Virus record (IMG/VR): IMGVR_UViG_2563366886_000002
Coordinates: 1 to 38,381 of that record
DNA from: a virus
Taxonomy: Duplodnaviria > Heunggongvirae > Uroviricota > Caudoviricetes
Length of the DNA: 38,381 nt
Strand: one strand, 5' to 3'
This document shows, one piece after another, positions 624-24,997 of the stretch. The position numbers and the translations under genes were made by a program. The notes below the pieces were generated by a model. That model did not search any database and was not told where the DNA came from. It saw only the letters and a list, made by a program, of their open reading frames with translations. Each line of letters starts with the position of its first letter. The stretch's first letter is position 1.

Positions 624-1045
624 CCTCGCGCATACAGCCGGGCAGTGACGTCATCGTCTGCGCGGAAATGGACGAACAGTGGGGATACGTCGGGGCTAAA
701 TCGCGCCAGCGCTGGCTGTTTTACGCGTATGACAGGCTCCGGAAGACGGTTGTTGCGCACGTATTCGGTGAACGCACTATGGCGACGCTGGGGCGTCTTA
801 TGAGCCTGCTGTCACCCTTTGACGTGGTGATATGGATGACGGATGGCTGGCCGCTGTATGAATCCCGCCTGAAGGGAAAGCTGCACGTAATCAGCAAGCG
901 ATATACGCAGCGAATTGAGCGGCATAACCTGAATCTGAGGCAGCACCTGGCACGGCTGGGACGGAAGTCGCTGTCGTTCTCAAAATCGGTGGAGCTGCAT
1001 GACAAAGTCATCGGGCATTATCTGAACATAAAACACTATCAATAA
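542..1045 (+). CDS. insB: IS1 InsB frame (expressed as InsAB' transposase by -1 frameshift)
   Basis: 167-codon ORF overlapping the insA 3' end in the -1 frame; sequence recognised as IS1 InsB. Confidence 0.9.
596..605 (+). promoter_or_regulatory. IS1 programmed -1 ribosomal frameshift motif (A6C)
   Basis: TTTAAAAAAC at the insA/insB overlap, the known IS1 frameshift window. Confidence 0.7.
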
Positions 1046-1061
1046 GTTGGAGTCATTACCG

Positions 1062-1172
1062 CTCTTGCGTCAGGAGGAGCGGGAAAGGCGAAAAAATATA
1101 GAAAAGCTAATTCAGATTGAGCGTAACGCGAAAGCGCGGATACGCAGGGCGACAAAATCCAGAACTGAATAA
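1062..1172 (+). pseudogene. 3' remnant of a gene truncated by IS1 (C-terminal 36 codons only)
   Basis: Frame opens directly at the IS1 right end with no start codon; reads LLRQEEREREKNIEKLIQIERNAKARIRRATKSRTE then stop. Confidence 0.3.
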
Positions 1173-1265
1173 TTAAATTTAGCTCTGTTAAAAATTTAAT
1201 CCTTAACCGGAGGGATTTCTGCACCCTCAGAACATCAGGAGGCCGCCCGAAAGGGCGGTAGTTAA

Positions 1266-1448
1266 ATGCGAAAGTTTAAAATAATTATTGAAACGGGAAT
1301 AGCCGGTGGAGATTTCGAGGATGAATTCGAAGTGGATGATGATGCGACGCCTGATGAAATACATGACGAAGCAAAAGATATTTTCTTTAACTACTGCAAT
1401 TACTCATATCACGAAATAAAAGACGAAGAGGAAGAACAAAATGGCTGA
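1266..1448 (+). CDS. small acidic hypothetical protein (60 aa)
   Basis: ORF MRKFKIIIETGIAGGDFEDEFEVDDDATPDEIHDEAKDIFF...; stop overlaps the next start (ATGGCTGA). Confidence 0.4.
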   Translation: MRKFKIIIETGIAGGDFEDEFEVDDDATPDEIHDEAKDIFFNYCNYSYHEIKDEEEEQNG

Positions 1449-1617
1449 TTTTGGTTCAACTAAATACAACGTCAGTTTTGAAGAATGGCATGAACTGTTA
1501 ATGGACTATGCAGAGTTACGTGGTGGCAGTGCTGCTGATGCTGAAGCATGGCGTGATGATTATGAAGCAGGAAAAACTCCGGTCGAAGCATATTGTGATG
1601 AGTGGGGCGATGAATGA
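1441..1617 (+). CDS. small acidic hypothetical protein (58 aa; below the ORF-track size cut-off)
   Basis: ATG at 1441 overlapping the upstream stop; MADFGSTKYNVSFEEWHELLMDYAELRGGSAADAEAWRDDYEAGKTPVEAYCDEWGDE; stop overlaps the next start (ATGA). Confidence 0.4.
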   Translation: MADFGSTKYNVSFEEWHELLMDYAELRGGSAADAEAWRDDYEAGKTPVEAYCDEWGDE

Positions 1618-1871
1618 GCGAGGTTAATTATCAGGAAGGGCATGAAACGGCGGGGCAAGCAAAAACAGTGGCATGGCGATATCGCTACGTGAAAAAAAAG
1701 GCGTTACGGACTTTCAGGGGAAGTAGTGGTCTGGTGACTGGAAATATGTACCGAAAAAAGAGGATTGTAACGACAGGCCGAACTATGAAATTCAGGCCTT
1801 ATTCACTGCCCCGCCAGTCCCGGTTACATCAGAAGAACTGGTTAAAGCTGTGCACTTTTATGAACAACTAA
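1614..1871 (+). CDS. hypothetical protein, possibly frame-disrupted
   Basis: ORF MSEVNYQEGHETAGQAKTVAWRYRYVKKK...; its 3' half is unusually basic, while a different frame (1727..1930) encodes a more protein-like stretch WSGDWKYVPKKEDCNDRPNYEIQALFTAPPVPVTSEELVKAVHFYEQLKRENPP with no start codon; an A8 run lies at 1692..1699. Confidence 0.3.
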   Translation: MSEVNYQEGHETAGQAKTVAWRYRYVKKKALRTFRGSSGLVTGNMYRKKRIVTTGRTMKFRPYSLPRQSRLHQKNWLKLCTFMNN

Positions 1872-2100
1872 AACGCGAAAATCCACCAGCATCCGGAAAC
1901 CTGATTACAGATTCCCAGATAAGGCAATGAGCTACCTGGCGCAGAACGGGCTGATAAGTATGGGGAATGTTTTACGATGAATATTTAGACTAAAGAGTTT
2001 GTAACGCTATGTAAGTGATTTTTTCTGGTTTAGATATTTATATGTCCGGCCAAATTGAGGTGTGTTTAAATGTAATTGCACATTGATTGTAGGAGGAATA

Positions 2101-2280: not shown

Positions 2281-2389
2281 ATACAGCGAACGCCATTGGT
2301 TTAGTTGGATATTTACTGTGCCGGACAAAAACGGTTTGCGGGGAAATCTTAGTTAAGTAGAATTACTGCGGGTGCTTGAGGCTATCTGT

Positions 2390-2538
2390 CTCAGGCATGA
2401 ACACCAAAAGGCAGATAGAGAAAAGCCCCAGTTAACATTACGCGTCCTGCAAGACGCTTAACATTAATCTGAGGCCATATCTATGCGACACATAGAGATT
2501 AGCCTCTTACGGACCGAAAGGTCAAGGAGAAGCAGGCT
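2390..2538 (+). promoter_or_regulatory. hok mRNA leader region (expected location of mok-like leader ORF and antisense Sok-like RNA)
   Basis: Structured leader upstream of hok; a short ORF (ATGCGACACATAGAG...) terminates in TGA overlapping the hok ATG; assignment by analogy to hok/sok loci. Confidence 0.35.
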
Positions 2539-2694
2539 ATGAAGCAGCAAAAGGCGATGTTAATCGCCCTGATCGTCATCTGTTTAACCGTCATAGTGAC
2601 GGCACTGGTAACGAGGAAAGACCTCTGCGAGGTACGAATCCGAACCGGCCAGACGGAGGTCGCTGTCTTCACAGCTTACGAACCTGAGGAGTAA
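2539..2694 (+). CDS. hokD: Hok/Gef family type I toxin (51 aa)
   Basis: MKQQKAMLIALIVICLTVIVTALVTRKDLCEVRIRTGQTEVAVFTAYEPEE, recognised as HokD/RelF-type Hok peptide. Confidence 0.85.
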   Translation: MKQQKAMLIALIVICLTVIVTALVTRKDLCEVRIRTGQTEVAVFTAYEPEE

Positions 2695-5536: not shown

Positions 5537-5612
5537 GGCCCTTTAGCTCAGTGGTGAGAGCGAGCGACTCATAATCGCCAGGTCGCTGGTTCAAATCCAG
5601 CAAGGGCCACCA
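5537..5612 (+). tRNA. tRNA with CAU anticodon (Ile2-lysidine type, ileX/ileZ-like; Met not excluded)
   Basis: Cloverleaf folded by eye: acceptor GGCCCTT/AAGGGCC, D arm GCTC..GAGC, anticodon loop CTCATAA, T arm GCTGG-TTCAAAT-CCAGC, encoded CCA; closely resembles E. coli ileX. Confidence 0.85.
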
Positions 5613-5712: not shown

Positions 5713-5786
5713 GCGTTGTTAGCTCAGCCGGACAGAGCAATTGCCTTCTAAGCAATCGGTCACTGGTTCGAATCCAGTACAGCGCG
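5713..5786 (+). tRNA. tRNA-Arg (anticodon UCU)
   Basis: Acceptor GCGTTGT/ACAGCGC (one GU pair), D arm GCTC..GAGC, anticodon stem ATTGC/GCAAT with loop CTTCTAA, T arm ACTGG-TTCGAAT-CCAGT; CCA not encoded. Confidence 0.8.
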
Positions 5787-6253: not shown

Positions 6254-6644
6254 ATACATATCTGGATTATCACTTGTTACGGTAAAAAGTGATTGCTTAC
6301 TGTTTTTGTGAATGGCATTGCAGCAGCCGGATAATGTCAGTGCTGGCTGACGGTGTGCTGGTGGCGGGTGTGGTGGTTATTGCTTTCCCGTTGCTGAAAA
6401 AGAAAACGCCAGACTGTTAGCCGGGTATCAGTTAGCGGGAGAAATTTTTAAATACTTCACAATTCAGGCGGTTGACTGTTGTCTGGTTTGCGGGGAGTTT
6501 GTTAAAAGAAACTGGCATGGTGAATCCCCCTGTGCGGAGGGGCAATCAGCGAGTAGGTATATGGGATAATCGCGGATTCAGGTGCTGGTACTGAATTCAC
6601 CGGGAGGCACCCGGCACCATGCAATGGCACATAGCGCCACTCTC

Positions 6645-6680
6645 CAGCCCCTCTCCGGAGGGGCTGTTTATATTGATTTT
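6645..6680 (+). terminator. rho-independent terminator (plus-strand oriented)
   Basis: CAGCCCCTC-TCCG-GAGGGGCTG 9-bp stem followed by TTTATATTGATTTT. Confidence 0.65.
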
Positions 6681-10148: not shown

Positions 10149-10268
10149 CCTCTCCATTAGTGAGTTGTATTGATCACAACTCTACAAAGAATTCATTACT
10201 GGGTAGATGAAAATAGTTTCACTATGAATGGAGGAGGCTATGTCGGTGGCTTCTTCATTGGAGTACAT

Positions 10269-10619
10269 ATGCCCCCACGAATCCCACGCGCCTGCCGTAA
10301 GCGTGGATGTGCAGGTACAACCACAGACAGTTCTGGTTACTGCGATAAACATCGTGGCGAAGGATGGGTACAGCATCAACGCGGACTGAGCCGCCACCAG
10401 CGTGGCTATGGCTCGAAATGGGATGCCATACGTGCGCGCATACTGAAGCGTGATAATCATCTGTGTCAGAACTGCCTGCGCAATGGGAGAGCCGTTGAAG
10501 CCAGAACTGTGGACCACATCATTCCGAAAGCTCATGGTGGCACGGATGCAGACAGTAACCTGCAGAGTCTGTGCTGGCCCTGTCATAAAGCAAAAACAGC
10601 GCGCGAACGCATCAATTGA
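10269..10619 (+). CDS. HNH endonuclease (packaging-associated), helper prophage
   Basis: MPPRIPRACRKRGCAGTTTDSSGYCDKHRGEG...CQNCLRNGRAVEARTVDHIIPKAHGGTDADSNLQSLCWPCHKAKT; immediately upstream of terS/terL. Confidence 0.8.
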   Translation: MPPRIPRACRKRGCAGTTTDSSGYCDKHRGEGWVQHQRGLSRHQRGYGSKWDAIRARILKRDNHLCQNCLRNGRAVEARTVDHIIPKAHGGTDADSNLQSLCWPCHKAKTARERIN

Positions 10620-10766: not shown

Positions 10767-11249
10767 ATGTCTGGACCCCCGAAAACCCCGCCACGCCTGC
10801 ATTTGATACGAGGTAACCCCTCAAAGCGGCCAGTTAAAGACTCCAAAAAAACCGCTAAAAAGGATGAAAAAGGTCTCCCTAAAATTCCGCAACATTTAGG
10901 GGCGCAGGGGAAGTACTGGTTCAGGCGAATGGCGGAAGAGCTGAATGCGGAAGGGATCATTTCTCAGCTCGATGCACGTGCGCTCGAGTTACTGGTGGAA
11001 GCCTACACCGAATACCGGCATCACTGCGAAATACTCGATGTTGAGGGTTATACCTACCGCACGGAAACGCAGAATGGCGATGTGCTGATCAAGGCACACC
11101 CGGCTGCTGCGATGAAGGCTGATGCCTGGAAGCGGATTCGGGCGATGCTTGCAGAGTTTGGTATGTCACCGGCAAGCCGGGCGAAAGTAAATACCGCCGG
11201 ACCGGATGATGTTGATCCGCTGGCAGAGCTTTTAAAAGCGAGAGACTGA
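10767..11249 (+). CDS. terminase small subunit (P27 family), helper prophage
   Basis: 160-aa ORF between HNH and terL; stop overlaps terL start; P27-family-like composition. Confidence 0.7.
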   Translation: MSGPPKTPPRLHLIRGNPSKRPVKDSKKTAKKDEKGLPKIPQHLGAQGKYWFRRMAEELNAEGIISQLDARALELLVEAYTEYRHHCEILDVEGYTYRTETQNGDVLIKAHPAAAMKADAWKRIRAMLAEFGMSPASRAKVNTAGPDDVDPLAELLKARD

Positions 11250-12277
11250 TGGCAAAAGTGGCTGACGGGATCCGCTACGCCGAACGTGTTGTTGCAGGAG
11301 AAATTGTTGCTGGCGAATTTGTCCGTCTGGCCTGCCAGCGTTTTCTTGATGATCTGAAGTACGGCGAAGAGCGGGGGATTTATTTCAGTGAACCTCGTGC
11401 ACAGCACATCCTTAATTTCTACAAATTTGTACCCCATGTGAAAGGGGCGCTGGCAGGTCAGCCCATTGAGTTGATGGACTGGCATGTGTTTATCCTCATT
11501 AATATTTTTGGTTTTGTCATTCCGCTGGTGAATGAAGAAACCGGGGAAGTTGTCATGCGCAGCGATGGCAGTGGACGCCCGGTGATGGTGCGCCGGTTCC
11601 GGACAGCATACAACGAAGTTGCCCGTAAAAACGCAAAATCAACCCTGTCATCGGGTATCGGTCTGTATATGACGGGGGCAGATGGTGAAGGCGGGGCTGA
11701 GGTGTATTCAGCCGCAACCACGCGTGACCAGGCCAGAATTGTGTTTGAAGACGCCAAAAATATGGTCAGAAAAGCCCGGTCGACACTCGGGCGGTTGTTT
11801 GATTTCAACAAGCTGGCGATTTACCAGGAGCAGAGCGCATCAAAATTTGAACCGCTTTCCTCGGATGCAAACAACCTGGACGGTCTGAACATCCACTGCG
11901 CCATTATTGATGAGCTGCATGCTCATAAAACCCGTGACGTGTGGGACGTTCTGGAAACGGCAACCGGTGCCCGTCTGCAGTCTCTGTTATTTGGCATCAC
12001 CACGGCTGGCTTTAACAAGGAAGGGATTTGCTACGAGCAGCGCGATTACGCCATTAAGGTATTGCGAGGCTATAACAGCGACGTGGAGGGCGCGGTAAAA
12101 GACGACTCCTACTTTGCGATCATTTACACGCTCGATGAGGGAGATGATCCGTTTGATGAAACGGTCTGGCAGAAAGCGAATCCTGGCCTGGGCATCTGTA
12201 AACGCTGGGATGATCTGCGTCGTCTGGCGAAAAAAGCGAAGGAGCAGGTCTCTGCGCGGGTGAATTTTTTTACCAAG
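11249..12277 (+). CDS. terminase large subunit, N-terminal (ATPase) portion only; interrupted by the inserted element
   Basis: MAKVADGIRYAERVV...KANPGLGICKRWDDLRRLAKKAKEQVSARVNFFTKK aligns by eye with residues 1 to about 330 of the intact terL at 25338..26999; frame then reads through the att junction into int. Confidence 0.8.
12263..12277. repeat. attL core (left junction of inserted element)
   Basis: AATTTTTTTACCAAG; 12/15 identical to AATATTCTTACCAAA at 27508..27522, with a 7-bp identical core TTACCAA; both copies in the terL reading frame. Confidence 0.6.
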
Positions 12278-12406
12278 AAAGTAACATCACGCCGTAACAA
12301 CAGTGCGACCTGTCCTGATTTTTTTAGTAACCAAATGAAAGAAAAAGATTTTTTTCTTGTTCGTCGTTTTTGTTTTTTCTGGAAGGTTCTGGCTGTTTTC
12401 ATCATT

Positions 12407-12429
12407 TGTGTATTGCACTGTGTATTGCA
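12407..12429 (+). repeat. tandem direct repeats (candidate integrase arm-type sites / int promoter), left arm
   Basis: TGTGTATTGCA c TGTGTATTGCA 20 bp upstream of the int ATG; related GTGTATTGC pair at 27419..27439. Confidence 0.5.
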
Positions 12430-12448
12430 AAAACGGGTTATAAATCAC

Positions 12449-13671
12449 ATGGCGCTAAACAAACTGAGCGATAAAAAACTTCGTTCCCTGCTTGGACGCA
12501 GGAGTGAGAGGCAGGAAACCATCGCTGATGGTAACGGGCTTTCGGTACGGGTCAGTAAATACGGATGTGTTAGTTTTGTTTTCTTTTACAGACTGGCGGG
12601 AAGGGAAACCGCGCCCATCTGGCTGACACTTGGAAAATATCCTGATCTGAGTCTCAAATCAGCGAGAGAGATGCGCGATCAGTGTCGAACTTGGCTTGCG
12701 GAGGGCAGAGATCCACGGATTCAGATAAAAATTGAACGGGAAGCCACCTTGCAACCTGTTACCGTTCGTGAGGCACTTGAATACTGGCTTGATAATTATG
12801 CAATGGATAAGCGTAGGGGAGCAGAACATATCAGGCAGTGCTTTGGTAAACATATTTATCCGGTGATTGGTCATGTACCACTTAGTGATTGCTCTATATC
12901 TATGTGGATTAAGTGTTTTGACAAAATAAAAAAAGTAGCACCTGTACAGGCCGGAGCTTTGTTGCGTATATCAAAACAGGCGCTTAAATTTTGTAGGGTA
13001 AGAAAATACGCGATTAGTCATGAAATTGATGATCTTGAGGTCTGTGATGTGGGAAAAAAGTCTGCGCGAAGAAGCAGGGTTTTAACAGATGATGAAATCA
13101 GAGATTTATGGCGAAGTATTAATACTGATTATGACAATCACGAATTATCATATGAAAACCGAATTATTTTACGTTTCCTGGTAGTTTTTGGTTGTCGACT
13201 GTCAGAAGTATTACTGTCGTCCTGGGTAGAGTGGGATTTTGATAAGAAATTATGGCGCGTTCCCGCTGATCATAGCAAAAATGGCAGGGAAATAATCAGA
13301 CCGATTCCTGATGGCATGTTTAACTGGTTAGTTACGTTAAAAAAATAACAGGTAACAAAGAAAATGTGATTGGGTTTGATATGCGTCAGTGTACGGCAAG
13401 CGTAACTATCGGTAAGACATGGAAAAGGATGAAACACTCGGAGAAATGGACGGCGCATGATATGCGAAGAGTGTTTGCCACAAAACTAAGTGATCATGGT
13501 TTTGAACATAATGTGGTTGAACAGTTGCTTGGGCACACATTAGGCGGTGTTGCCGGGGTTTATAACAGAAGCCAGTATATGGACAGAAAAAAAGAAGCTA
13601 TGAACTGGTGGTACGACTATCTGAATAAGCAAATTAGTGGTGACAGTAATGATTCAAATAGTTACGCGTGA
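12449..13671 (+). pseudogene. int: tyrosine integrase (P4-like), reading frame split by a frameshift at an A7 run
   Basis: N part MALNKLSDKKLRSLLGRRSERQETIADGNGLSVRV... ends TAA at 13346..13348; catalytic C part (..WTAHDMRRVFATKLSD..LLGH..VYNRSQY) continues in the -1 frame (13366..13671); A7 run at 13339..13345. Confidence 0.6.
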
Positions 13672-13870
13672 AGAACTTGAAAATGATGAAACAATCGACA
13701 GGATGATTAAGGAAGATGAATGTGCATGGTTAACCGCTCTTGGCAGGAGACACAGATCGTTACTTGAAAAGGAAGGAAAATTTCCACGAAAAATATGTAT
13801 TGGCCCACAAACAAAAGTCTGGCGCTTATCTGAGGTGCTGGAATGGGTAAAAGGTGAATGGAAACCCTGA
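13637..13870 (+). CDS. AlpA-family DNA-binding protein (excisionase/regulator-like)
   Basis: ...ECAWLTALGRRHRSLLEKEGKFPRKICIGPQTKVWRLSEVLEWVKG resembles AlpA helix-turn-helix; start uncertain (several Met). Confidence 0.55.
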   Translation: MVTVMIQIVTREELENDETIDRMIKEDECAWLTALGRRHRSLLEKEGKFPRKICIGPQTKVWRLSEVLEWVKGEWKP

Positions 13871-13895
13871 GCTAAATTAAATGAGATATAATCAA

Positions 13896-13918
13896 CCCGT
13901 CTTTTGGCGGGTTTTTTT
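13896..13918 (+). terminator. rho-independent terminator
   Basis: CCCGTC-TTTT-GGCGGG hairpin plus T7. Confidence 0.6.
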
Positions 13919-13933
13919 ATAGGTGATATTTTT

Positions 13934-14212
13934 ATGCAAAAATTTATTTATCCTACACCCGAAGAACGCATTCAGATTCTGAAAGATCATGGCGAACCGT
14001 ATGATCGCCGTATACGCGAACATGAGTGTGCCAATCGTACCGGGCTTTCAAGAAGCAGACGTTGGGTACTTGAACAGGAGGGAGCATTTCCTGCTCGTGC
14101 TCATTTAGGGAAAGTGTCTGTTTCCTGGTTGCTCTCTGATGTGCTCTGGTGGGTTATGCATCCGCCAGGAGTAAAGGAAGTAAACAGCCCATACAAAAAC
14201 GCCAATAAGTAA
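13934..14212 (+). CDS. second AlpA-like DNA-binding protein
   Basis: AGGTGA RBS; MQKFIYPTPEERIQILKDHGEPYDRRIREHECANRTGLSRSRRWVLEQEGAFPARAHLGKVSVSWLLSDVLWWV. Confidence 0.55.
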   Translation: MQKFIYPTPEERIQILKDHGEPYDRRIREHECANRTGLSRSRRWVLEQEGAFPARAHLGKVSVSWLLSDVLWWVMHPPGVKEVNSPYKNANK

Positions 14213-14233
14213 TTACCGACAACCCCGCACCAC

Positions 14234-14261
14234 GCAATGCGGGGTTTTTTGTATGTGAGGT
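14234..14261 (+). terminator. rho-independent terminator
   Basis: CCCCGCA-CCACGCAA-TGCGGGG plus TTTTTT. Confidence 0.7.
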
Positions 14262-14269
14262 AAAAAGCA

Positions 14270-14848
14270 ATGAATAAAAATATTGCCGTGACGGGCAAGG
14301 GTGACGCACGTCATGTGAAAAAATTCTGTGATATTCGTGATCTGGTCGTTCTGCGCTTTGATGGCGTGGATGTTCGTGTGGTGTATCTAAACGGCGATCC
14401 GTGGTTTGTTGCAAAGGATGTTTGTGCTGCGCTGGAACTGACCAATTCGCGTACGGCGTTGCAGATGCTTGATGATGACGAAAAGGGAGTAAATTTAACT
14501 TACACCCCCGGAGGAAATCAGAATATGAGCATTATCTCCGAATCAGGTTTCTACAAACTAATAGCCCGCAGCCGCAAAGCAACGACGCCTGGCACATTTG
14601 CTCATCGTTTCAGTAACTGGGTATTCAGAAATGTGATACCGGGTATCAGAAAAACGGGGGCTTATGGTATCCCGTGGGGCGCATTACAGGATTTTTCCCG
14701 CCGCAAAGAGCAATACCAGATAAGTGCCAGTGAGAAGGGGAGGGAGCTACAGGCATGTAAGCGCAAAAAGCGTGAGCTGGAGGAAGAAGAAAAAAGGCTG
14801 ATACGTGAATACCAGCCTGAGTTTTACTTTGGTGAGCGTATTCAGTAA
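14270..14848 (+). CDS. Bro-N domain protein (antirepressor-like)
   Basis: N-terminal VRVVYLNGDPWFVAKDVCAALELTNSRTALQMLDDDEKG typical of Bro-N/AntA N-terminal domains; charged coiled-coil C-terminus. Confidence 0.6.
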   Translation: MNKNIAVTGKGDARHVKKFCDIRDLVVLRFDGVDVRVVYLNGDPWFVAKDVCAALELTNSRTALQMLDDDEKGVNLTYTPGGNQNMSIISESGFYKLIARSRKATTPGTFAHRFSNWVFRNVIPGIRKTGAYGIPWGALQDFSRRKEQYQISASEKGRELQACKRKKRELEEEEKRLIREYQPEFYFGERIQ

Positions 14849-15126
14849 CCACACGCGGTGTTGATTATACGGTACATCGTGTTGACCGGGAAGCTACCCA
14901 CCAGCAAGGCAAAATCTTCTGCTAAAAAATGACATATGACCAGTCGTCCGGAAAGCATGAAATTTTACAAAAATGGAAAATGAAGATTTTTATTGTGCTG
15001 GTGGGTAAAAACAAAAAGCGCCCCGTTGCCGGAGCGCCCTTGCGAACAATTAACCTACTGCGCAAAAAATGAATATAAGCTGTGGAATTATATCAGACAG
15101 GTGACGAAGCGCCACTATTGCCGGAT

Positions 15127-15162
15127 AACAGGCAAAACAAAGGCGACCGCAAAAGGGTCGCC
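15127..15162 (-). terminator. rho-independent terminator for the leftward regulator operon
   Basis: GGCGACC-GCAAAAG-GGTCGCC perfect 7-bp stem; T-rich on the reverse strand (TTGTTTTGCCTGTT). Confidence 0.6.
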
Positions 15163-15228
15163 AGTGGGAACAAGGGAAAACAAAAGCATCACCAACAATG
15201 CCACATTTGCGGCTGGTGGGCAATGTGA

Positions 15229-15417
15229 TCAGTCAGATTTGGTTCGTTCCAAGGTTTGCAACGAGAGCTTTTTCCTGCGCTCTTTAAGGAATTTCTCAAG
15301 AGCAAACGAACAAGGTGCGAATCTTTCTGATTCATGCTCTATCTTTCTGCGCCGTCTTTTCCGTGTCGGTGATAATGTTTTGGTCAATTCTTTATCGGTC
15401 ATTGTGTTGTCCTGCAT
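15229..15417 (-). CDS. small basic hypothetical protein (62 aa)
   Basis: Reverse-strand ORF MQDNTMTDKELTKTLSPTRKRRRRKIEHESERFAPCSF...; downstream of the repressor-like gene, upstream of the reverse terminator. Confidence 0.35.
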   Translation of the reverse strand: MQDNTMTDKELTKTLSPTRKRRRRKIEHESERFAPCSFALEKFLKERRKKLSLQTLERTKSD

Positions 15418-15459
15418 AGCAATGCGCCGTAGTTACTCACACCACGGCGCTGATAGTGA

Positions 15460-15657
15460 TTATTCTGATTCTTTGGCCTTCCGGCGCTGTTCATATTTTA
15501 ATTTGCGTCCACAGGCATCTAAGACCCATGCGGAAAAATTAGCACTAGGATTAGTTAATTTTTCTTGTTCAACGCTGGCATCAATCCCATCTATAAGCTC
15601 ATGTGGGAATCGAATATTTTTCTTTGCTGATTTGTTGTTTGTGTTACCGCTAGACAT
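15460..15657 (-). CDS. small putative DNA-binding protein; candidate element repressor
   Basis: 65-aa reverse-strand ORF MSSGNTNNKSAKKNIRFPHELIDGIDASVEQEKLTNPSANFSAWVLDACGRKLKYEQRRKAKESE; divergent from, and adjacent to, the palindromic operator-promoter. Confidence 0.4.
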   Translation of the reverse strand: MSSGNTNNKSAKKNIRFPHELIDGIDASVEQEKLTNPSANFSAWVLDACGRKLKYEQRRKAKESE

Positions 15658-15725
15658 TGATGCACCTCACTTAAATGGACTTTATGGGCGCACACAATAC
15701 AGCAAAAAAAATGAGATGTTAAGTA

Positions 15726-15764
15726 TTGACATGTGCGCACACATGATTTTAATCTGTGCGCACA
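15726..15764 (+). promoter_or_regulatory. rightward early promoter of the element overlapped by two palindromic operators
   Basis: TTGACA (15726..15731) and TTTAAT -10 candidates; two perfect 10-bp palindromes TGTGCGCACA at 15732..15741 and 15755..15764, 23 bp centre to centre; degenerate third copy GCGCACACA at 15689..15696. Confidence 0.6.
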
Positions 15765-15862
15765 GTTTGAGTTTTGTCACTCAAATTAAGCAACGCCCCG
15801 CAGTGCTCGCAACACATGCAGGGCGTCTAACCACCAACGATAGCAAGAGTATCGAGGTAGCT

Positions 15863-16066
15863 ATGAGAAATCATACCACACACCCGCAAGGGCGGGACTC
15901 GCACAACCTGAATAAATATATCTGGCGTTTTATCGCCCTGAGCACGGCACAACCGCGCGTGATTACCATTGAGGCCACCAGCGAACAGGAAGCACGCCAG
16001 CAATCCCCGGCTGGCTGCGTGATGGTATTCGCCGCCCGTATTCGTCAGGGGGTACACCATGATTAA
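15863..16066 (+). CDS. hypothetical protein (67 aa), first gene of the rightward operon
   Basis: MRNHTTHPQGRDSHNLNKYIWRFIALSTAQPRVITIEATSEQEARQQSPAGCVMVFAARIRQGVHHD; stop overlaps next start. Confidence 0.45.
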   Translation: MRNHTTHPQGRDSHNLNKYIWRFIALSTAQPRVITIEATSEQEARQQSPAGCVMVFAARIRQGVHHD

Positions 16067-16271
16067 CCTGTCACTTACCGACCTTAACCGCATCCAGTTT
16101 CGTGAGAAATTCACCGGGCAGTTGCTAGTCAATGTGGATAAAGGTCGCGTGGTGAGTAATTACCACCTGCCAGATGAAGCAATTGTCGCAACAAGGGAAT
16201 CATTACAGGAACTCGCAGAGCGTGTCGGAATGATTAACGCGAATATTCAGGGGGGGGTGAGCCATGCATGA
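16059..16271 (+). CDS. hypothetical protein (70 aa)
   Basis: Start-coupled ORF MINLSLTDLNRIQFREKFTGQLLVNVDKGRVVSNYHLPDEAIVATRESLQELAERVG. Confidence 0.45.
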   Translation: MINLSLTDLNRIQFREKFTGQLLVNVDKGRVVSNYHLPDEAIVATRESLQELAERVGMINANIQGGVSHA

Positions 16272-16497
16272 TATTTACAATGACACAGTAGATCATGCAT
16301 ACAGCGCACTTGCTTACAGTGAAAACATGCTTGAAATATTGCGCTTATGGCTTGAAACGCTTGGCGATAATGAAAGAGATAAACGCAACAGCAATATTGC
16401 AACAGCATTAATAACGCTTCTTGAGCCTGTAATAAATGAACTGCAAGAAATAGACATCTTGCACGACAGATATAAAGAGCAACACACCGGGAAATAA
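16264..16497 (+). CDS. hypothetical protein (77 aa)
   Basis: Start-coupled ORF MHDIYNDTVDHAYSALAYSENMLEILRLWLETLGDNERDKRNSNIATALITLLEPVINELQE. Confidence 0.45.
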   Translation: MHDIYNDTVDHAYSALAYSENMLEILRLWLETLGDNERDKRNSNIATALITLLEPVINELQEIDILHDRYKEQHTGK

Positions 16498-16502
16498 AAA
16501 CC

Positions 16503-16802
16503 ATGAAACAGAAAATTTCTGGCTTTACTGCCAGCGGCCCCGCTCGGCCTGAAATCCGCCCCGGCGATATTTTCCGGGATAACTACGGCGGCACGGTAAC
16601 GATTAAAAGCGTGGCGGGACGGTGCGTTACTTACCGCCGTGATGGGTACGGCTATGACTGCGTGATGCCTGTTTATCAGTTCCGGCGTGATTTTTCTCTG
16701 GTACAGAACGCAACACGCGGTAAGCCCACCAGCAGGGAAAAAGCACGGGAAAATATTAAGAAAATAAAAAGCATGCTCAGCGCATCCAGAGGTAAAAAAT
16801 GA
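16503..16802 (+). CDS. hypothetical protein (99 aa)
   Basis: MKQKISGFTASGPARPEIRPGDIFRDNYGGTVTIKSVAGRCVTYRRDGYGYDCVMPVYQFRRDF...; stop overlaps the rep start (ATGA). Confidence 0.45.
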   Translation: MKQKISGFTASGPARPEIRPGDIFRDNYGGTVTIKSVAGRCVTYRRDGYGYDCVMPVYQFRRDFSLVQNATRGKPTSREKARENIKKIKSMLSASRGKK

Positions 16803-18919
16803 AACTGGCACCGAACGTAAAACTGTTACCGAAAGATAAAGGCGAGGATGCAGTGATTTTTGCGGGGGATGACGCATACAGCCACGCAGAGCATTACATG
16901 CAGGGCGGAGAAGCCAGAAAGCGCGGCGACAAAATACCACCTGTTTATCTCGGGCGGCGTGACCTGGGTAATCTGGAAAACCTGCGTATTGTGGATGATG
17001 GACGGTTACGCGCCATGGTCAGACGTGCCGGAAAGCTGGATGACAGACAGGCGTTACAGATTGAAACCCTGCTGGCAGTGGCTGGTGTTAAGGAAGCCAG
17101 TTTTTGTGACGAGAACGGTGAACTACTGGAGGACTGGACACCGCAGCTTGCCCGGCTGAAAGACGAATACGAGCGCGGGGAAAGTCTGGTGTTGCCCTTA
17201 AAGAAAAAAATCACAGAAAGCCAGGGCGATGATGAATTAAAGCCCCGCGTTGAAAGTCGCGCCGATGGTGTTTTCTGGGTAACGCCCAAAGTTGACAAGC
17301 AGTCAGGCGAAATTATCCGGCCTGAGACGTGGTTATGTTCCCCGCTTGAACTACTGGGAACGGGGACAATCGGCAAAGAGCATTACCGCGTGATGCGCTG
17401 GAAGAAACCCGCAAACCATGAAGTCATCACAATGGCGGTTCCGTGCGGGGGCATTGGCGACCGTGACGGCTGGCGGTTGCTGAAAGACCACGGCCTTAAC
17501 GTAACAACTAACGGCAAATACAGGGCTATCCTGGCTGACTGGATGCAGTTAAGCGGAAACCATGAGGAATGGCAGTTAAGCACAACAACGGGCTGGCATT
17601 TTGGTGCGTACATCATGCCGGACGGTTCAGTCATTGGTGAGTCTGAAAAACCGATCCTGTTTACCGGAAAAACGGCTGCCGTTAATGGCTATTCTGTGGC
17701 AGGAACGGCGGAGGGCTGGCGCGATACCGTTGCGCGGCTGGCTGGTGGTAATCCGTCCATGATGCTGGGTGTGGCGGTATCGTTATCCGCACCATTAATC
17801 GGGCTGGTGGGTGCTGACGGCTTCGGGGTACATCTTTTCGAACAGTCATCGGCAGGGAAAACCACCACACAGAACATCGCATCCAGTTTATGGGGAGAGC
17901 CGGACGCGCAACGGCTGACCTGGTACGGTACAGCGTTAGGCATCGCCAACGAGGCAGAGGCGCACAATGACGGGCTATTACCCCTGGATGAAATAGGTCA
18001 GGCCGGAAACGCGCGGGAAGTGTCCACGTCGGCTTATACGCTGTTTAACGGTTCGGGGAAATTACAGGGGGCGAAGGACGGCGGCAACAGGGAGATCAAA
18101 CACTGGCGCACGGTGGCAATCAGCACCGGAGAAATGGACGTTGAGACATTCCTCAAAACGGAGGGGATAAAAGTCAAGGCGGGGCAGCTTGTCCGCCTGC
18201 TTAACGTGCCAATGGAAAAAGCCACGCAGTTTCACGAATACAGCACCGGAAAGGCACACGCAGACGCGTTAAAGGATGCCTGGACAGAAAATCACGGGGC
18301 GGCGGGGCGTGAATGGGTTAAATGGCTGGCAGACCACCAGCAGGAGGCAAAGGATACGGTAAGGGCATGCCGTGAACGGTGGCGCAACCTGATACCGGAG
18401 AGTTACGGCGAACAGGTTCACCGTGTGGGGGAACGATTCGCCATGCTGGAGTCGGCGCTGGTGCTTTCCGTCCATATTACTGGTTGGGATGTTCAGGCGT
18501 GCCGCGATGCCATTCAGCATAATTTTAATGCCTGGGTGAAGGAGTTCGGCACGGGTAACAGGGAGTTTAAACAGATGGTTGAACAGGCAGAGGCTTTTTT
18601 AGCGTCGTTCGGATTCAGCAGATACCTTCCGTGGCCCAACACCGACGAGCGTGATTTACCGATTAAAGAGCTTGCCGGATACAGAAAGGGGAGTATCAGA
18701 AACGAAGATGACGAGTTCCGTTTTTACACGTTCCCGCATGTATTTGAGGGTGAGATAGCACAGGGATTTAATCCGTCTCACTTTGCCCGCGCGTTGAGTG
18801 CTGCCGGAATGCTGGAAGCGGGTAACGATCGCCGTTACAAGAAAAAGGCGCTCGGCAAAATTGGGGGGAAGCAGCATGTTTTTTACGTGCTGATGTTCCA
18901 GCCTGAGGCAGAAGATTAA
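16799..18919 (+). CDS. replication protein, DUF927-type P-loop NTPase (primase/helicase-like) of the element
   Basis: 706-aa ORF with Walker A GxxxxGKT (SSAGKTTTQN); followed immediately by an iteron cluster; architecture typical of satellite/PICI replication genes. Confidence 0.6.
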   Translation: MKLAPNVKLLPKDKGEDAVIFAGDDAYSHAEHYMQGGEARKRGDKIPPVYLGRRDLGNLENLRIVDDGRLRAMVRRAGKLDDRQALQIETLLAVAGVKEASFCDENGELLEDWTPQLARLKDEYERGESLVLPLKKKITESQGDDELKPRVESRADGVFWVTPKVDKQSGEIIRPETWLCSPLELLGTGTIGKEHYRVMRWKKPANHEVITMAVPCGGIGDRDGWRLLKDHGLNVTTNGKYRAILADWMQLSGNHEEWQLSTTTGWHFGAYIMPDGSVIGESEKPILFTGKTAAVNGYSVAGTAEGWRDTVARLAGGNPSMMLGVAVSLSAPLIGLVGADGFGVHLFEQSSAGKTTTQNIASSLWGEPDAQRLTWYGTALGIANEAEAHNDGLLPLDEIGQAGNAREVSTSAYTLFNGSGKLQGAKDGGNREIKHWRTVAISTGEMDVETFLKTEGIKVKAGQLVRLLNVPMEKATQFHEYSTGKAHADALKDAWTENHGAAGREWVKWLADHQQEAKDTVRACRERWRNLIPESYGEQVHRVGERFAMLESALVLSVHITGWDVQACRDAIQHNFNAWVKEFGTGNREFKQMVEQAEAFLASFGFSRYLPWPNTDERDLPIKELAGYRKGSIRNEDDEFRFYTFPHVFEGEIAQGFNPSHFARALSAAGMLEAGNDRRYKKKALGKIGGKQHVFYVLMFQPEAED

Positions 18920-18941
18920 CCCCCTGTGTGAGGTGAAAAGT

Positions 18942-19066
18942 TGCGGGTTATGCGGGTTATCCTGTGTATAAGTGCATTAACTGTATGAATAAAAAGGAAA
19001 TCAGTAACCCGCACGTAACCCGCAAAACGGCAGTTATAACCCGCAAAAGTGCGATTATAACCCGCA
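18942..19066. repeat. iteron cluster (candidate origin of replication of the element)
   Basis: 9-mer TGCGGGTTA twice in tandem (18942..18959), AT-rich spacer, then inverted copies TAACCCGCA at 19005, 19016, 19037, 19058. Confidence 0.65.
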
Positions 19067-19129
19067 GAATTTCACCGTAAGGGTGTAAACAAGCGTAACA
19101 ATCAACGTTAAAACCGGAGAACAGACAGC

Positions 19130-19555
19130 ATGACAGCACAGATAGCGGCTTACGGGCGGCTGGTGGCTGACCCGCAGTTAAAGACCACCAGCAAGGGGAC
19201 ACAAATGGCTATGGCGAGTATGGCGGTTCCCCTGCCGTGCAGCCAGGCAGATGACGGAACGGCGACGATGTGGTTATCCGTCCTGGCGTTTGGCAGACAG
19301 GCCGATGCACTGGCAAAACACCAGAAAGGCGAACTGGTGAGTGTGGCGGGTAACATGCAGGTAAGCCAGTGGACAGGCCAGAACGGCGAAATGCGGCAGG
19401 GCTGGCAGGTCATCGCAGACAGCGTAATCAGTGCGCGAACGGCGCGACCGGGCGGCAAAAAAGGCCAGCAGGGCCAGGCTACTGACGCACTGAACAGGGC
19501 AAAACAACAGACAGGCCAGCACGATGATCCGTACGGGGACGGGATACCGTTTTAA
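19130..19555 (+). CDS. ssb: single-stranded DNA-binding protein
   Basis: OB-fold-like N-terminus (IAAYGRLVADPQLKTTSKGTQMAMASMAV), Gly/Gln-rich linker, acidic tail ending DDPYGDGIPF (SSB-type DIPF tail); GGAGAA RBS. Confidence 0.7.
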   Translation: MTAQIAAYGRLVADPQLKTTSKGTQMAMASMAVPLPCSQADDGTATMWLSVLAFGRQADALAKHQKGELVSVAGNMQVSQWTGQNGEMRQGWQVIADSVISARTARPGGKKGQQGQATDALNRAKQQTGQHDDPYGDGIPF

Positions 19556-19570
19556 GCAGTGAGGTACAGC

Positions 19571-19867
19571 ATGATTAAAGACAGCAAAGCGGAAGAACTG
19601 GAGGCTAAAGGGCTGTACCGGAGAGCGGCGGCACGTTGGGCTGATGTTATGTGGCTGGTGAGCACTGACAAGGAGCGCGAACAGGTGGCAAAGCGTCGCG
19701 CGGAATGTATCCGTAAGGCAGCGCGCCAACCAGTCATACCGGATAATTTCGGAATACTGAAAGAGGCCATAAACCGCACACATACCGGGATGGGCTTACA
19801 GAAACCTGGCGGTGAGATGTTCAGGAACTACCCGAAAAAAAAGGGGATAATTGATAACGGTTGTTAA
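19571..19867 (+). CDS. PerC-family transcriptional regulator-like protein
   Basis: MIKDSKAEELEAKGLYRRAAARWADVMWLVSTDKEREQVAKRRAECIRKA resembles PerC/Pch proteins as recalled; GAGG RBS. Confidence 0.45.
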   Translation: MIKDSKAEELEAKGLYRRAAARWADVMWLVSTDKEREQVAKRRAECIRKAARQPVIPDNFGILKEAINRTHTGMGLQKPGGEMFRNYPKKKGIIDNGC

Positions 19868-19899
19868 CTGTTTCTGGTATCGTGGTAGCAGGAGGAAAC

Positions 19900-20148
19900 A
19901 TGCCTGTGACATTTGAAGAAGTTCAGCAACATAAAAAGTTTCATGGTTTTGATGATCTGGAAACCACGACAGCAAAAAAATATCGCCGTCTGCTTTCTTC
20001 CGATGCGTTGTTTGTTGTGGATCATCATGATTTTCTGCGCAGCTCACTGACCGGGGAAATTTTCGCAACCAACCGTGAGCAGGTGGAAGCGATGATCGAA
20101 TACCTGTGGAAACTAAGAAGCAGAATGCGGGATCCCGTGAAACGGTAA
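19900..20148 (+). CDS. hypothetical protein (82 aa)
   Basis: AGGAGG RBS; MPVTFEEVQQHKKFHGFDDLETTTAKKYRRLLSSDALFVVDHHDFLRSSLTGEIFATNREQVEAMIEYLWKLRSRMRDPVKR. Confidence 0.45.
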   Translation: MPVTFEEVQQHKKFHGFDDLETTTAKKYRRLLSSDALFVVDHHDFLRSSLTGEIFATNREQVEAMIEYLWKLRSRMRDPVKR

Positions 20149-20157
20149 AATGATAAA

Positions 20158-20185
20158 GGCCTGGTAAAATCCAGGCCATTTTTTT
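20158..20185. terminator. terminator hairpin between convergent genes
   Basis: GGCCTGG-TAAAAT-CCAGGCC followed by ATTTTTTT on the plus strand. Confidence 0.65.
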
Positions 20186-20690
20186 ACAGTAAGCCTATTA
20201 AGGCACTTGCGCCAGCCCCAACAATGCTGGCAACGGTACTGTTTTCCAGTAACTGCTTTAATACTGATTTGGCTTGTACATCCCCCGATTTAGAGACTTT
20301 TTCAACCAGTTCAGTGATGCTGATGTTTACCAGCATATGGTTATGCTCACCTATCTGCACTTGATTACCACTAATTGAACCAATGTTAAATGTATTACTT
20401 TTAGGTGGCGTCATATGTTCATTTCCCGTGATATTTTCAATATAGAGCGTCAACATATTTGGATGGTTGGTTCCCTGTCTGAGGGTTCCATTGGGAAGCA
20501 ACTTCATATCTATAATTTTTAGATTTATCTCGTTTTTACCGACACACTGGATAATGTGTTGACCAATAGTTACTTCCGGTTCATTTGTATATGGAATTAA
20601 TACCTTGTTTTCTTTTGCGTTTCTTTTACCTTTAAATGATTCGCCATTAATTATGAAAGTATCAGGGTATACCATTGCGCTTAAATTCAT
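20184..20690 (-). CDS. AT-rich accessory protein of unknown function (168 aa) with hydrophobic Gly/Ala-rich C-terminal tail
   Basis: Reverse-strand ORF MNLSAMVYPDTFIINGESFKGKRNAKENKVLIPYTNEPEV...NSTVASIVGAGASALIGLL; AAAGGA RBS; markedly lower GC than the flanking modules; own upstream region and terminator. Confidence 0.5.
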   Translation of the reverse strand: MNLSAMVYPDTFIINGESFKGKRNAKENKVLIPYTNEPEVTIGQHIIQCVGKNEINLKIIDMKLLPNGTLRQGTNHPNMLTLYIENITGNEHMTPPKSNTFNIGSISGNQVQIGEHNHMLVNISITELVEKVSKSGDVQAKSVLKQLLENSTVASIVGAGASALIGLL

Positions 20691-20976
20691 GATGCGTCCT
20701 TTGTTGTAGTCAGAGGTAGCAATAATAGGCCATGGTTTACTTCTTTTGTAAATTATTTGTTCGTGTTTTTTCGTGGTTGTTCGGCCTTACTGACAGGTGT
20801 TTACATACTGATTTTTATGTATATGTTGGCGTGTGGCACTCAGACGTGAGCCGCCACAATGCCGCCTGACCCCCTGCGCGATGCCGGGTTGATCTGCGAG
20901 ATGCCGAGAGTGTCGGGCGGCGCTCCCTCCGTGTTGGTTTCACGTCCTGAATCTTAACCAATACGAGAAAACCTTC

Positions 20977-22146
20977 ATGAAGAAATTAATCGAACTCCGC
21001 CAGCAAAAAACCGCCCTGAAAAACCAGATGCGATCCCTGCTGGAAAAAGCCGACAGTGAAAACCGCAGCCTGAACGATGACGAGGGCAAACAGTTTGATG
21101 AACTGCGTGCAAAAGCCGATTCCCTCGACACAGAAATTTCCCGCCTCGAGTCTGTGGCTGATGAAGAACGCAGCAAGCCAGGAACGGGCATCCAGAAATT
21201 ATCATCTGATGAATTGCGTAACTACATCGTAACCGGAGATGTGCGATCACTGACCACCAGCACTGACAGCGGCAGGGATGGCGGATATACCGTAATTCCT
21301 GAGCTTGATCGCGAAGTCATGCGCCAGCTACAGGATGACAGTGTTATGCGCGTGATCGCGACCGTGAAGACCGCAAAATCAAATGAGTTTCAGAAACTGG
21401 TTTCCACTGGCGGCGCAACTGTAGGACGAGGCACAGAAGGCAGCGCACGTAGTGAAACCAACACCCCGAAAATTGAACGTGTAACCATCAAGCTGAATCC
21501 GATCTACGCCTACCCGAAAACCACGCAGGAAATCCTGGATTTTTCAGAGGTGGATATTCTGGGCTGGTTATCCTCCGAAATTGCCGACACGTTCGCCAGC
21601 ACCGAAGAGGATGATTTTGTTAATGGCGACGGTAACGGCAAGCCGAAAGGCTTCATGGCTTACACCCGTGCGGCGACCAGTGACAAAACCCGCGCTTTTG
21701 GCACCATTGAAAAAGTGGTAGCGGCAAGTGGAACCGCCATTACAGCGGACGAACTGATCGACATTCTCTACAAGCTGAAAGCGAAATACCGCAAAAATGC
21801 CGTCTGGGTGATGAACTCGGGCACGGCAGGGACACTACAGAAGCTGAAAAATGAGAATGGCGATTATATCTGGCGCGACAGCCTTAAAGAAGGTGCGCCG
21901 GATATGTTGCTTGGTCGTCCTGTTTTCTGCCTGGAGTCCATGCCGGACATCGGCGCAGGAAAAGCACCGCTAGCGGTTGGCGATTTCAGTCGTGGTTATT
22001 TCATCGTTGATCATGTAACAGGGATTCGCACCCGACCGGACAACATTACTGAACCCGGATTCTACAAGGTCCACACGGATAAATATCTGGGCGGTGGTGT
22101 GGTGGATTCAAACGCCATCAAAATTCTGGAAATGAAAGCTGGCTAG
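20977..22146 (+). CDS. major capsid protein, HK97 fold (element copy)
   Basis: 389-aa ORF with N-terminal coiled-coil delta-domain-like region then capsid-like body; paralogous by eye to the helper capsid at 30232..31449. Confidence 0.75.
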   Translation: MKKLIELRQQKTALKNQMRSLLEKADSENRSLNDDEGKQFDELRAKADSLDTEISRLESVADEERSKPGTGIQKLSSDELRNYIVTGDVRSLTTSTDSGRDGGYTVIPELDREVMRQLQDDSVMRVIATVKTAKSNEFQKLVSTGGATVGRGTEGSARSETNTPKIERVTIKLNPIYAYPKTTQEILDFSEVDILGWLSSEIADTFASTEEDDFVNGDGNGKPKGFMAYTRAATSDKTRAFGTIEKVVAASGTAITADELIDILYKLKAKYRKNAVWVMNSGTAGTLQKLKNENGDYIWRDSLKEGAPDMLLGRPVFCLESMPDIGAGKAPLAVGDFSRGYFIVDHVTGIRTRPDNITEPGFYKVHTDKYLGGGVVDSNAIKILEMKAG

Positions 22147-22200
22147 TCATGAGTAAGGAGGAGGCTGCGGCCTCCTTTTTCAGCTTTATGGAGTACACCG

Positions 22201-22761
22201 ATGAAAAACACCGATTTTGAAATCCGCACATCTGAACTGACCGCCAGCAATAAAAAGCTGGTGGGGTATGCCGTTCGCTGGAACAGCCTTTCAGAAATTA
22301 TCTGGGACGAATTCCGCGAACAGTTCACGCCGGGGGCTTTTGCTGACTATCTGGCGGCGGGTAATGATGTGCGCTGCCTGTATGAGCATGACTATACCCA
22401 ACTGCTGGGGCGCACCAAATCCGGCACTCTGGTACTGACTGGGGACAACACCGGGCTACGTTTTGAACTGACACCGCCTGATACCCAGCTTGGAAAAGAT
22501 GTGCTCACGCTGGTGTCGCGTGGCGACATTACAGGAATGAGCTTTGGCTTTCGCGCATTATGCGAAGAATGGAATATCGCGCAAAAACCGTATTTGCGTA
22601 CCGTAACCGCCGCTGAACTCCGAGAAATCACAATAACGTCGATGCCTGCTTATCCAGAATCTGGCGTGGAGATTGCCCACCGTTCGTTGTTTGCACAGCA
22701 CCCTGAATTACGCCCGGCAGGAAATAATCGTCATCGCTGGGCTGAACTGGCGGGGTTGTGA
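22201..22761 (+). CDS. prohead protease, HK97 family (element copy)
   Basis: 186-aa ORF between capsid and portal; resembles the helper protease at 29618..30217. Confidence 0.7.
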   Translation: MKNTDFEIRTSELTASNKKLVGYAVRWNSLSEIIWDEFREQFTPGAFADYLAAGNDVRCLYEHDYTQLLGRTKSGTLVLTGDNTGLRFELTPPDTQLGKDVLTLVSRGDITGMSFGFRALCEEWNIAQKPYLRTVTAAELREITITSMPAYPESGVEIAHRSLFAQHPELRPAGNNRHRWAELAGL

Positions 22762-22762
22762 T

Positions 22763-24709: not shown

Positions 24710-24997
24710 ACAGGAGCAAAACAGGCTGATACGTGGACTGATAAGGCAGCGTGACTTATGGAAGACACAGGAGACAGGGCACAAAGTCAACAGGACAGGG
24801 CGCACAGAACGCACCACACCGAAGCGATTAACCGACCGTGACCGCGAGGTCATGGAATGTTTTCGCAATCGCTGGTGAGGCTGTCAGAGGGGGTGGGGGA
24901 GGTTTTCAGGACGAAACCGTCCCTGCCGGACACCGACCGCCTCCTCAAATTTTTGTGCACGGGAATTTTTTTGAAAATAATTGGGCGAAAAAAGAAC

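Follow-up and report, generated by a model that had tools for sequence, protein, structure and literature searches.

The window analysed here, a stretch of 38,381 nt, holds a lambdoid prophage of E. coli whose head genes are of HK97 type. The gene for its large terminase subunit, terL, is present in two pieces, which lie on either side of an insert that has its own integrase, replication genes, capsid gene and terminase. We assign this insert to the helper-embedded phage-inducible chromosomal islands (HE-PICIs), a type of satellite found in late genes of prophages, and we refer to the surrounding prophage as the helper. The features that define the insertion are the following.

11249..12276, + strand: 5' part of the helper terL (residues 1-342/343), with Pfam TerL_ATPase (6.2e-28) and positions 2-53 of the TerL_nuclease profile; joined to 27522.. 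in intact genomes
12263..12277, + strand: left attachment site attL, a 15-nt imperfect repeat with the identity block and crossover TTACCAA at 12270..12276
12277..27521, + strand: inserted satellite, 15,245 nt counting one copy of the core, a helper-embedded island of capsid-forming type
27508..27522, + strand: right attachment site attR, a 15-nt imperfect repeat with the core TTACCAA at 27515..27521
27522..28251, + strand: 3' part of the helper terL, nuclease domain (Pfam 9.9e-40, profile positions 58-283)

The left repeat, AATTTTTTTACCAAG, and the right repeat, AATATTCTTACCAAA, are identical at 12 of their 15 positions. A sequence-only reading of the window had described them as an imperfect repeat with a 7-bp core in the terL frame, and its strings and coordinates proved exact. 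Mismatches flank the shared core TTACCAA on both sides. Both copies lie in the terL frame, which reads ..ARVNFFTK up to the left junction and NILTK followed by HMNVW.. across the right one. At the insert's left end, the frame continues after ..NFFTK as KVTSRRNNSATCPDFF.., which is unrelated to TerL, and to the right of attR it runs after NILTK as HMNVWVTAESAW.. up to the end of the nuclease domain. Because a 12/15 match within a 200-nt target region arises in 1.1% of shuffles, the 15-nt repeat by itself is only suggestive of attachment (att) sites.

Excising 12277..27521 in silico and joining the ends at TTACCAA produced an open reading frame (ORF) of 1758 nt, coding for 585 aa, with the frame unbroken. 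At least 30 complete E. coli genomes have a gene annotated as an uninterrupted 'terminase large subunit' that matches a 799-nt piece across this join with 100% identity along the entire piece; an alignment of the junctions with intact terL genes, which had been proposed as a check, places the join at TTACCAA. The empty site was seen in 905 of 5426 complete E. coli genomes, which cover at least 80% of the 799-nt piece. The occupied site, represented by an 801-nt junction between terL and the integrase gene, was found in 36 E. coli genomes, including E. coli 042 and UMNF18, and the integrase itself occurs in the same 36 complete E. coli genomes and in no others of the set. In the RefSeq annotation of E. 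coli 042, terL is given as two partial pieces around an island of the same gene order. Since the join gives an intact terL, the same junction recurs in 36 genomes and E. coli 042 has the same layout, these comparisons argue that the boundaries of the insert are exact and that the site is used specifically, and they exclude chance or an assembly artefact. The identification of the two repeats as attL and attR of a site-specific insertion in terL is therefore well founded, and it agrees with the published att identity cited below.

A coincidental origin of the 15-nt repeat and of the 9-mers that lie near it, with the true boundaries elsewhere (for example those of a complete prophage nested in the first, of an intron or intein, or of a chimeric assembly), was weighed against these data. 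The ~1% of shuffles that give a 12/15 match in 200 nt would speak for it, as this rate is not negligible over a 38-kb window. We nevertheless regard it as practically ruled out: the exact join gives an intact terL at 100% identity, the doubled motif described below is expected 0.00 times, the same junction is found in 36 independent complete genomes as well as in published alignments, and the insert encodes an integrase and shows no genes recognisable as tail or lysis genes.

The integrase region was found at 39 places in the 36 genomes, with two copies each in Z1324SEC0014, TUM1881 and ETEC4090. In ETEC4090 the junction search and the integrase search point to different loci. Such double copies are possibly two occupied terL prophages in one genome.

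Read from the two junctions, the attP of the satellite is ..AATATTC TTACCAA GAAAGTA.. and the attB inside terL is ..AATTTTT TTACCAA ACACATG..; the junction strings obtained by precise joins at TTACCAA are ..ATTCTTACCAAGAAAGTAAC.. for attP and ..TTTTTTTACCAAACACATG.. for attB. TTACCAA has the length, about 7 bp, of the overlap in a lambda-type complex attP, the type recombined by a tyrosine integrase. This type of insertion is already known: HE-PICIs were published in 2023, together with this very site, its TTACCAA block and the doubled motif near it, by Tommasini, Mageeney and Williams (NAR Genomics and Bioinformatics, PMC10111431), who described 491 HE-PICIs at 14 prophage late-gene sites, with one integrase clade. 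One of their site groups, A_Terminase_1_246, comprises elements of 15-16 kb from E. coli, E. albertii and Arsenophonus nasoniae, for which the att identity 'ttaccaa' is listed (PMC10111431 supplement). The core was recovered in related elements, where the sequence-only reading had suggested looking for it.

The published alignments also bear on the extent of the crossover. The E. albertii attL equals that of the window where the two overlap, and the attR differs at a few satellite-side bases. The identity block reads TTACCAA in E. coli and TCACGAA in Eal51 of E. albertii; in Arsenophonus it is an identical stretch of 15 nt, AATTTTATAACAAAG, which covers exactly the 15-nt repeat noted in the window. 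Because the block co-varies in this way between lineages, the alignments support TTACCAA as the probable region of strand exchange, and the 15 nt as the probable core-type recognition region. At the published off-target site of Eco2384 (DUF333/yeaN region), the identity block is 'gaa', directly to the right of ttaccaa; this fits a TTACCAA overlap or a right-shifted frame alike.

Two further elements of the predicted attP lie inside the ends of the insert.

12407..12429, + strand: doubled motif TGTGTATTGCAcTGTGTATTGCA, attP right arm, starting 134 nt past the core centre and 20 nt ahead of the int ATG
27419..27439, + strand: doubled motif GTGTATTGCgcTGTGTATTGC, attP left arm, ending 79 nt ahead of the core centre

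The first consists of TGTGTATTGCA present twice and the second of GTGTATTGC present twice, with all copies exact and on the + strand, so that the tandem, co-oriented repeats first read at both ends are where they were said to be. The window has the 21-nt doubled pattern GTGTATTGCNNTGTGTATTGC at two places, 12408..12428 and 27419..27439, against 0.00 occurrences in 100 dinucleotide-preserving shuffles. The attP therefore carries two co-oriented doubled TGTATTGC motifs, i.e. four half-sites, at fixed distances from the crossover: 79 and 134 nt when measured from the middle C of the core, or 81 and 132 nt if the centre is set 2 nt rightward. The same doubled motif was described as tgTGTATTGCantgTGTATTGCa, present twice per HE-PICI attP, co-oriented, at 81 ± 2 nt on the upstream side of the attP centre and 132 ± 2 nt on its downstream side, and other PICIs are without it (PMC10111431). 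The integrase has an Arm-DNA-bind_3 domain (3.5e-18), and the TGTATTGC repeats are putative arm-type sites, with AlpA as an alternative binder.

We also scanned all species genomes for the doubled motif, using 16 specified bases. The matches listed were mostly in unrelated taxa, and two were relevant. In Erwinia endophytica (NZ_RQVV01000053.1, 629..1506), the doubled motif lies ~75 nt before what appears by eye to be the 3' part of a portal gene, itself followed by an ORF that, again by eye, is protease-like. This layout would look like the attR side of an HE-PICI at a portal site, and would lend independent support to the geometry of the motif. In Xenorhabdus bakwenae (NZ_CP119194.1, reverse complement ~650..2060), a close homologue of the window integrase (MAVNKLSDKKLKSL..) comes after the doubled motif. 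The upstream neighbour is a multi-pass membrane protein, EamA/DMT-like by eye, and not a phage late gene; this locus would be either an off-target site or a site in the chromosome that this integrase clade uses in another genus.

Within the reconstituted TerL, the ATPase match ends at residue 268 and the nuclease profile begins at residue 283. The insertion falls at residue 343, around positions 53-58 of the 286-position TerL_nuclease profile. It had first been placed at the boundary between the ATPase and nuclease domains, which is not the case, as it lies ~60 residues into the Pfam nuclease model. The site is upstream of the conserved VGVDLA stretch (~residues 377-382 of the reconstituted protein), which we take to hold the first catalytic Asp of the nuclease. 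If so, the split would part the motor from the whole catalytic nuclease fold. The suggestion that attP carries terL-like sequence was correct over ~5 codons (NILTK versus NFFTK, ~15 bp, 12/15 nt) and fails beyond them, where no replacement for the 3' part is found and the gene is not restored. Because attP has no replacement copy of this 3' part, the helper terL is broken while the satellite is integrated.

The 5' part of terL, the 171-nt attP arm and int together form one 699-codon ORF at 11249..13348, in which the 57 codons from the junction to the int ATG are free of stops (shuffle p ~0.018). In E. coli 042 the RefSeq start of the integrase is placed upstream, at MKEKDFF.... A fusion of truncated TerL with Int was considered as a general feature of these elements and rejected: the Arsenophonus A_246 attL has a TGA after 24 codons, and in the capE group (three loci) a TAG is found 10 codons past the junction, though int is in the same phase. 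The stop-free run is probably due to chance.

The gene content of the insert was assigned mainly by Pfam matches, as follows.

12449..13671, + strand: tyrosine integrase (Arm-DNA-bind_3 and Phage_integrase), split by a 1-nt deletion, the ORF stopping at 13348
13637..13870, + strand: AlpA-family excisionase/regulator 1 (Pfam Phage_AlpA 1.9e-9)
13894..13913 and 14221..14246, + strand: terminator-like hairpins, one after each alpA gene
13904..14212, + strand: AlpA-family regulator 2 (Pfam 7.2e-10)
14270..14848, + strand: Bro-N domain protein, Bro zone (Pfam 7.2e-20)
14993..16066, + strand: 357-aa ORF with an Icd-like C-terminus, a host cell-division inhibitor domain (NCBIfam phage_ICD_like 1.5e-18, aa 309-352)
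16503..16802, + strand: DUF4222 (Pfam 1.3e-24 or 2.1e-46, a pair of values given jointly with DUF927)
16799..18919, + strand: DUF927 primase/replicase, replication zone (Pfam, 2.1e-46 and 1.3e-24 being the joint pair)
18943..19065: GCGGGTTA iteron cluster, ori-like, with 2 direct and 4 inverted copies, just after the DUF927 primase gene
19130..19555, + strand: SSB (Pfam)
19559..19867, + strand: PerC-family regulator (Pfam)
20977..26999, + strand: satellite head and packaging module (Pfam), with the genes that follow
20977, + strand: HK97-type major capsid protein (Pfam)
22201, + strand: S78 protease (Pfam)
22673, + strand: portal (Pfam)
23883, + strand: connector (Pfam)
24269, + strand: satellite HNH (Pfam)
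24857, + strand: satellite small terminase, TerS (Pfam)
25338..26999, + strand: satellite TerL, a second and complete one (Pfam), 32% identical to the helper TerL
27081..27233: second GCGGGTTA cluster, with 3 direct and 3 inverted copies flanking an AT-rich stretch, between the satellite terL and attR

The zones of the satellite follow one another in the order integration (int, AlpA), Bro, replication and late, which is the order that defines HE-PICIs. The ORFs searched in 12277..27521 matched no tail or lysis family, a few small ORFs being without any match. Judged from the gene families, this is the layout of a PICI of the Gram-negative kind that has captured a module for head and packaging, i.e. 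a capsid-forming PICI (cf-PICI). The prototype of that class, EcCIEDL933 (Alqurainy et al., 10.1101/2022.09.08.507074), likewise has capsid, protease, portal, connector, HNH, TerS and TerL and no recognisable tail or lysis genes. All seven head and packaging genes of cf-PICIs are present here (Pfam), in an element of 15.2 kb compared to the 10-15 kb given for the class. The capsid protein matches the EcCIEDL933 capsid (PDB 9GYI) over its full length with E = 2.9e-155 and ~70% identity by eye, the next PDB match being at E ~1e-55. The cf-PICIs were described at six chromosomal attB sites of E. coli 'never occupied by prophages' (10.1101/2022.09.08.507074). The window element differs in that its attB is inside a prophage gene and not in the chromosome proper; that criterion is a search heuristic of the paper and not a mechanistic property.

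The satellite terL was examined as a possible target of the satellite's own integrase, and self-targeting was rejected: at the homologous codons it reads CTCACCAAGCG (..EMLTKRF..), where the helper reads TTTACCAAACA, with ACCAA in common and the full TTACCAA core absent. Over 26247..26279 it reads ..GAAATGCTCACCAAGCGATTC.. (EMLTKRF) and shares 20 of 33 nt with the attB region, so that it is not a perfect attB.

The 8-mer GCGGGTTA occurs 13 times in the window for 1.1 expected, and 12 of the 13 copies belong to the two clusters inside the satellite. The cluster near the right end could be a second origin of replication, a Rep-binding site or a packaging site. The Bro zone varies between elements that are otherwise near-identical: the 357-aa ORF of the window matches a known family only over its last ~45 residues, and E. 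coli 042 has in this zone a truncated ORF, a YlcI/YnfO gene on the reverse strand and a small, separate Icd-like gene. Two minus-strand ORFs (127 and 168 aa) with no Pfam, NCBIfam or PADLOC match occupy 19796..20690, between the replication module and the head module. This position is the usual place of accessory or defence cargo in PICIs. PADLOC gave no defence-system match for the unassigned ORFs of the satellite, and Rfam no C4/isrK-type immunity RNA inside it at the gathering score.

Two packaging genes of the helper precede the split terL.

10170..10619, + strand: helper HNH endonuclease, packaging accessory (Pfam HNH 3.3e-16)
10767..11249, + strand: helper small terminase, Terminase_4, P27 type (Pfam 1.7e-25)

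On the + strand, the helper thus runs from sok, tRNA genes, HNH and TerS upstream of the split to portal, protease, capsid and tape measure downstream of it. Four helper RNAs are above the Rfam gathering scores, namely the sok antitoxin RNA, two tRNA genes and the sRNA STnc100 (2370..2541, 5537..5609, 5713..5786, 6486..6675). The counterpart in E. coli 042 is annotated with a Q-type antiterminator and lysis genes, and with a helper integrase that is itself frameshifted. The main genes of the satellite, including int, alpA and the primase gene, are on the same strand (+) as the helper late operon.

Altogether, every defining feature that could be tested was found, and we consider the element to be a member of the HE-PICI site group A:Terminase_1:246 with a probability of about 0.9, on the strength of sequence comparison. 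With the published members Eco1645.15.A_Terminase_1_246 and Eal37.16 (PMC10111431), it has in common the target gene and codon, the 'ttaccaa' identity, attL over the shared stretch, the size of 15-16 kb, the spacing of the doubled TGTATTGC motif and the co-orientation. Nothing essential differs from these members; the window copy has a private 1-nt deletion in int and a content of the Bro zone different from that of E. coli 042. The founding HE-PICI, Eco567.11capE, which resides in E. coli NRG857c, in the lambda-E-type capsid gene of the prophage 50icd, shares the integrase clade, a doubled motif just upstream of int (in the capE group) and a late gene split without replacement. The window integrase, read from the intact copy of E. 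coli 042, is 50% identical over its full length (398 aa) to integrases of capE-group HE-PICIs from other E. coli genomes. Eco567.11capE differs in its capsid target, its 10-bp identity block, its size of 11 kb and the lack of terS, whereas the window element has a complete head and terminase module. Eco567.11capE is presumed to rely on its helper's cos machinery for packaging, and HE-PICIs in general carry no replacement sequence for the target gene (PMC10111431).

The sequence shows that the tyrosine integrase of the satellite recombined attP with attB at codon 343 of terL, within TTACCAA, and so produced attL and attR. For the later events, we propose the following course. Upon induction, by analogy with Eco567.11capE, the whole composite would excise and replicate, and late transcription of the helper would probably read through the 5' part of terL into int and alpA, which are directly downstream of it in the same orientation. 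On the + strand of the stretch from the junction to int, no promoter-like or terminator-like site was found; on this strand, terminator-like hairpins first appear past the alpA genes. The core and the four motif half-sites would be where Int, together with AlpA, assembles to excise the satellite precisely. If the analogy holds, this excision would restore terL and delay packaging by the helper; a satellite of the capsid-forming type should need mainly the tails of the helper. In the induction experiments with Eco567.11capE, the one HE-PICI for which such data exist, the composite excised and replicated and the satellite excised later, 42-98% by 2-3 h (PMC10111431).

Several points weigh against this scheme, or against its being active in the present copy. 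Excision, its timing and the read-through are extrapolated from Eco567.11capE, whose virions could not be recovered, many helpers of HE-PICIs look truncated, and the binder of the doubled motif was left open by the authors, as the arm domains of Int, AlpA or an unknown protein (PMC10111431). The excised attP junction, searched as a 30-mer and as a 22-mer, gave 0 matches in viral and metagenome contigs, and a 26-mer of attL was found in 9 IMG/VR contigs; the absence of attP says little, as the contigs searched appear to be mostly integrated prophages. Finally, the copy may not work. Over the 1622 nt of the int/alpA region, a single base separates the window from E. coli 042, a run of seven A at 13339..13345 instead of eight. 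The shorter run ends the Int ORF at residue 299 of 407, ahead of the C-terminal catalytic part, the remainder lying in another frame at 13366..13671. A 66-nt query over the A-run spans 67 positions of the record at 98.5% identity in 36 of 36 complete genomes, which is consistent with eight A in all of them. Either the base was missed in sequencing the homopolymer, or an inactivating mutation arose very recently.

If the deletion were real, the satellite could not excise on its own and the helper would be left without a terminase. The composite could then be a fossil, with the satellite fixed in terL by the frameshift, a helper that cannot package DNA and att sites that are relics of a past event. 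The truncation of Int, set against 36 genomes consistent with the longer run, fits such an end, as do the truncated look of many HE-PICI helpers and the frameshifted helper integrase of E. coli 042. The rest of the 1622-nt region is however identical to E. coli 042, so that any decay would be very recent, and an error in homopolymer length accounts for the shorter run equally well. We therefore regard a fossil as possible, though on the doubtful side; it would touch only the present activity of this copy and not the origin of its att sites.

The splitting of a protein-coding gene without replacement, and its restoration by precise excision, are also features of regulated-gene-integrity elements. 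Known examples of regulated gene integrity, or 'active lysogeny', are skin in sigK and phi10403S in comK. The difference is that the split gene here belongs to the helper phage and that the presumed beneficiary is the insert. The likeness of HE-PICIs to regulated gene integrity was drawn by the authors who described them (PMC10111431), and with the restorable split of terL it would be the ground for viewing the insert as a safety catch on terL that serves the prophage or the host, rather than as a self-serving parasite. Such a switch seems very improbable to us, given that the insert carries a complete set of satellite genes, including replication and head/packaging modules of its own, and that only ~4% of the genomes with this terL carry it (36 versus 905).

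Under the satellite assignment, which we prefer, the interruption of terL might itself act in cis as interference with the helper, with no dedicated interference protein: the satellite comes with HNH, TerS, TerL, capsid and portal genes of its own and would need nothing but tails. As long as the satellite stays in place, or in those genomes from which it excises late, the helper would make tails and lysis proteins and be unable to package, and the tails would be left for satellite capsids. EcCIEDL933, in contrast, was reported not to reduce the yield of its helper (10.1101/2022.09.08.507074). We hold this idea to be speculative and rather unlikely as it stands; a capsid-forming type in a helper-embedded element combines features from separate papers, and the interference idea is not explicitly published as far as we checked.

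The satellite described here parks in an essential late gene of its own helper, so that packaging by the helper would depend on the satellite leaving, while the satellite would be replicated and transcribed in cis. For annotation, this means that such composites read as a 'defective prophage with a split terminase' and that the satellite is missed. To the known HE-PICIs, the window adds one instance, together with a capsid-forming type of embedded element, a private int frameshift and two iteron clusters.

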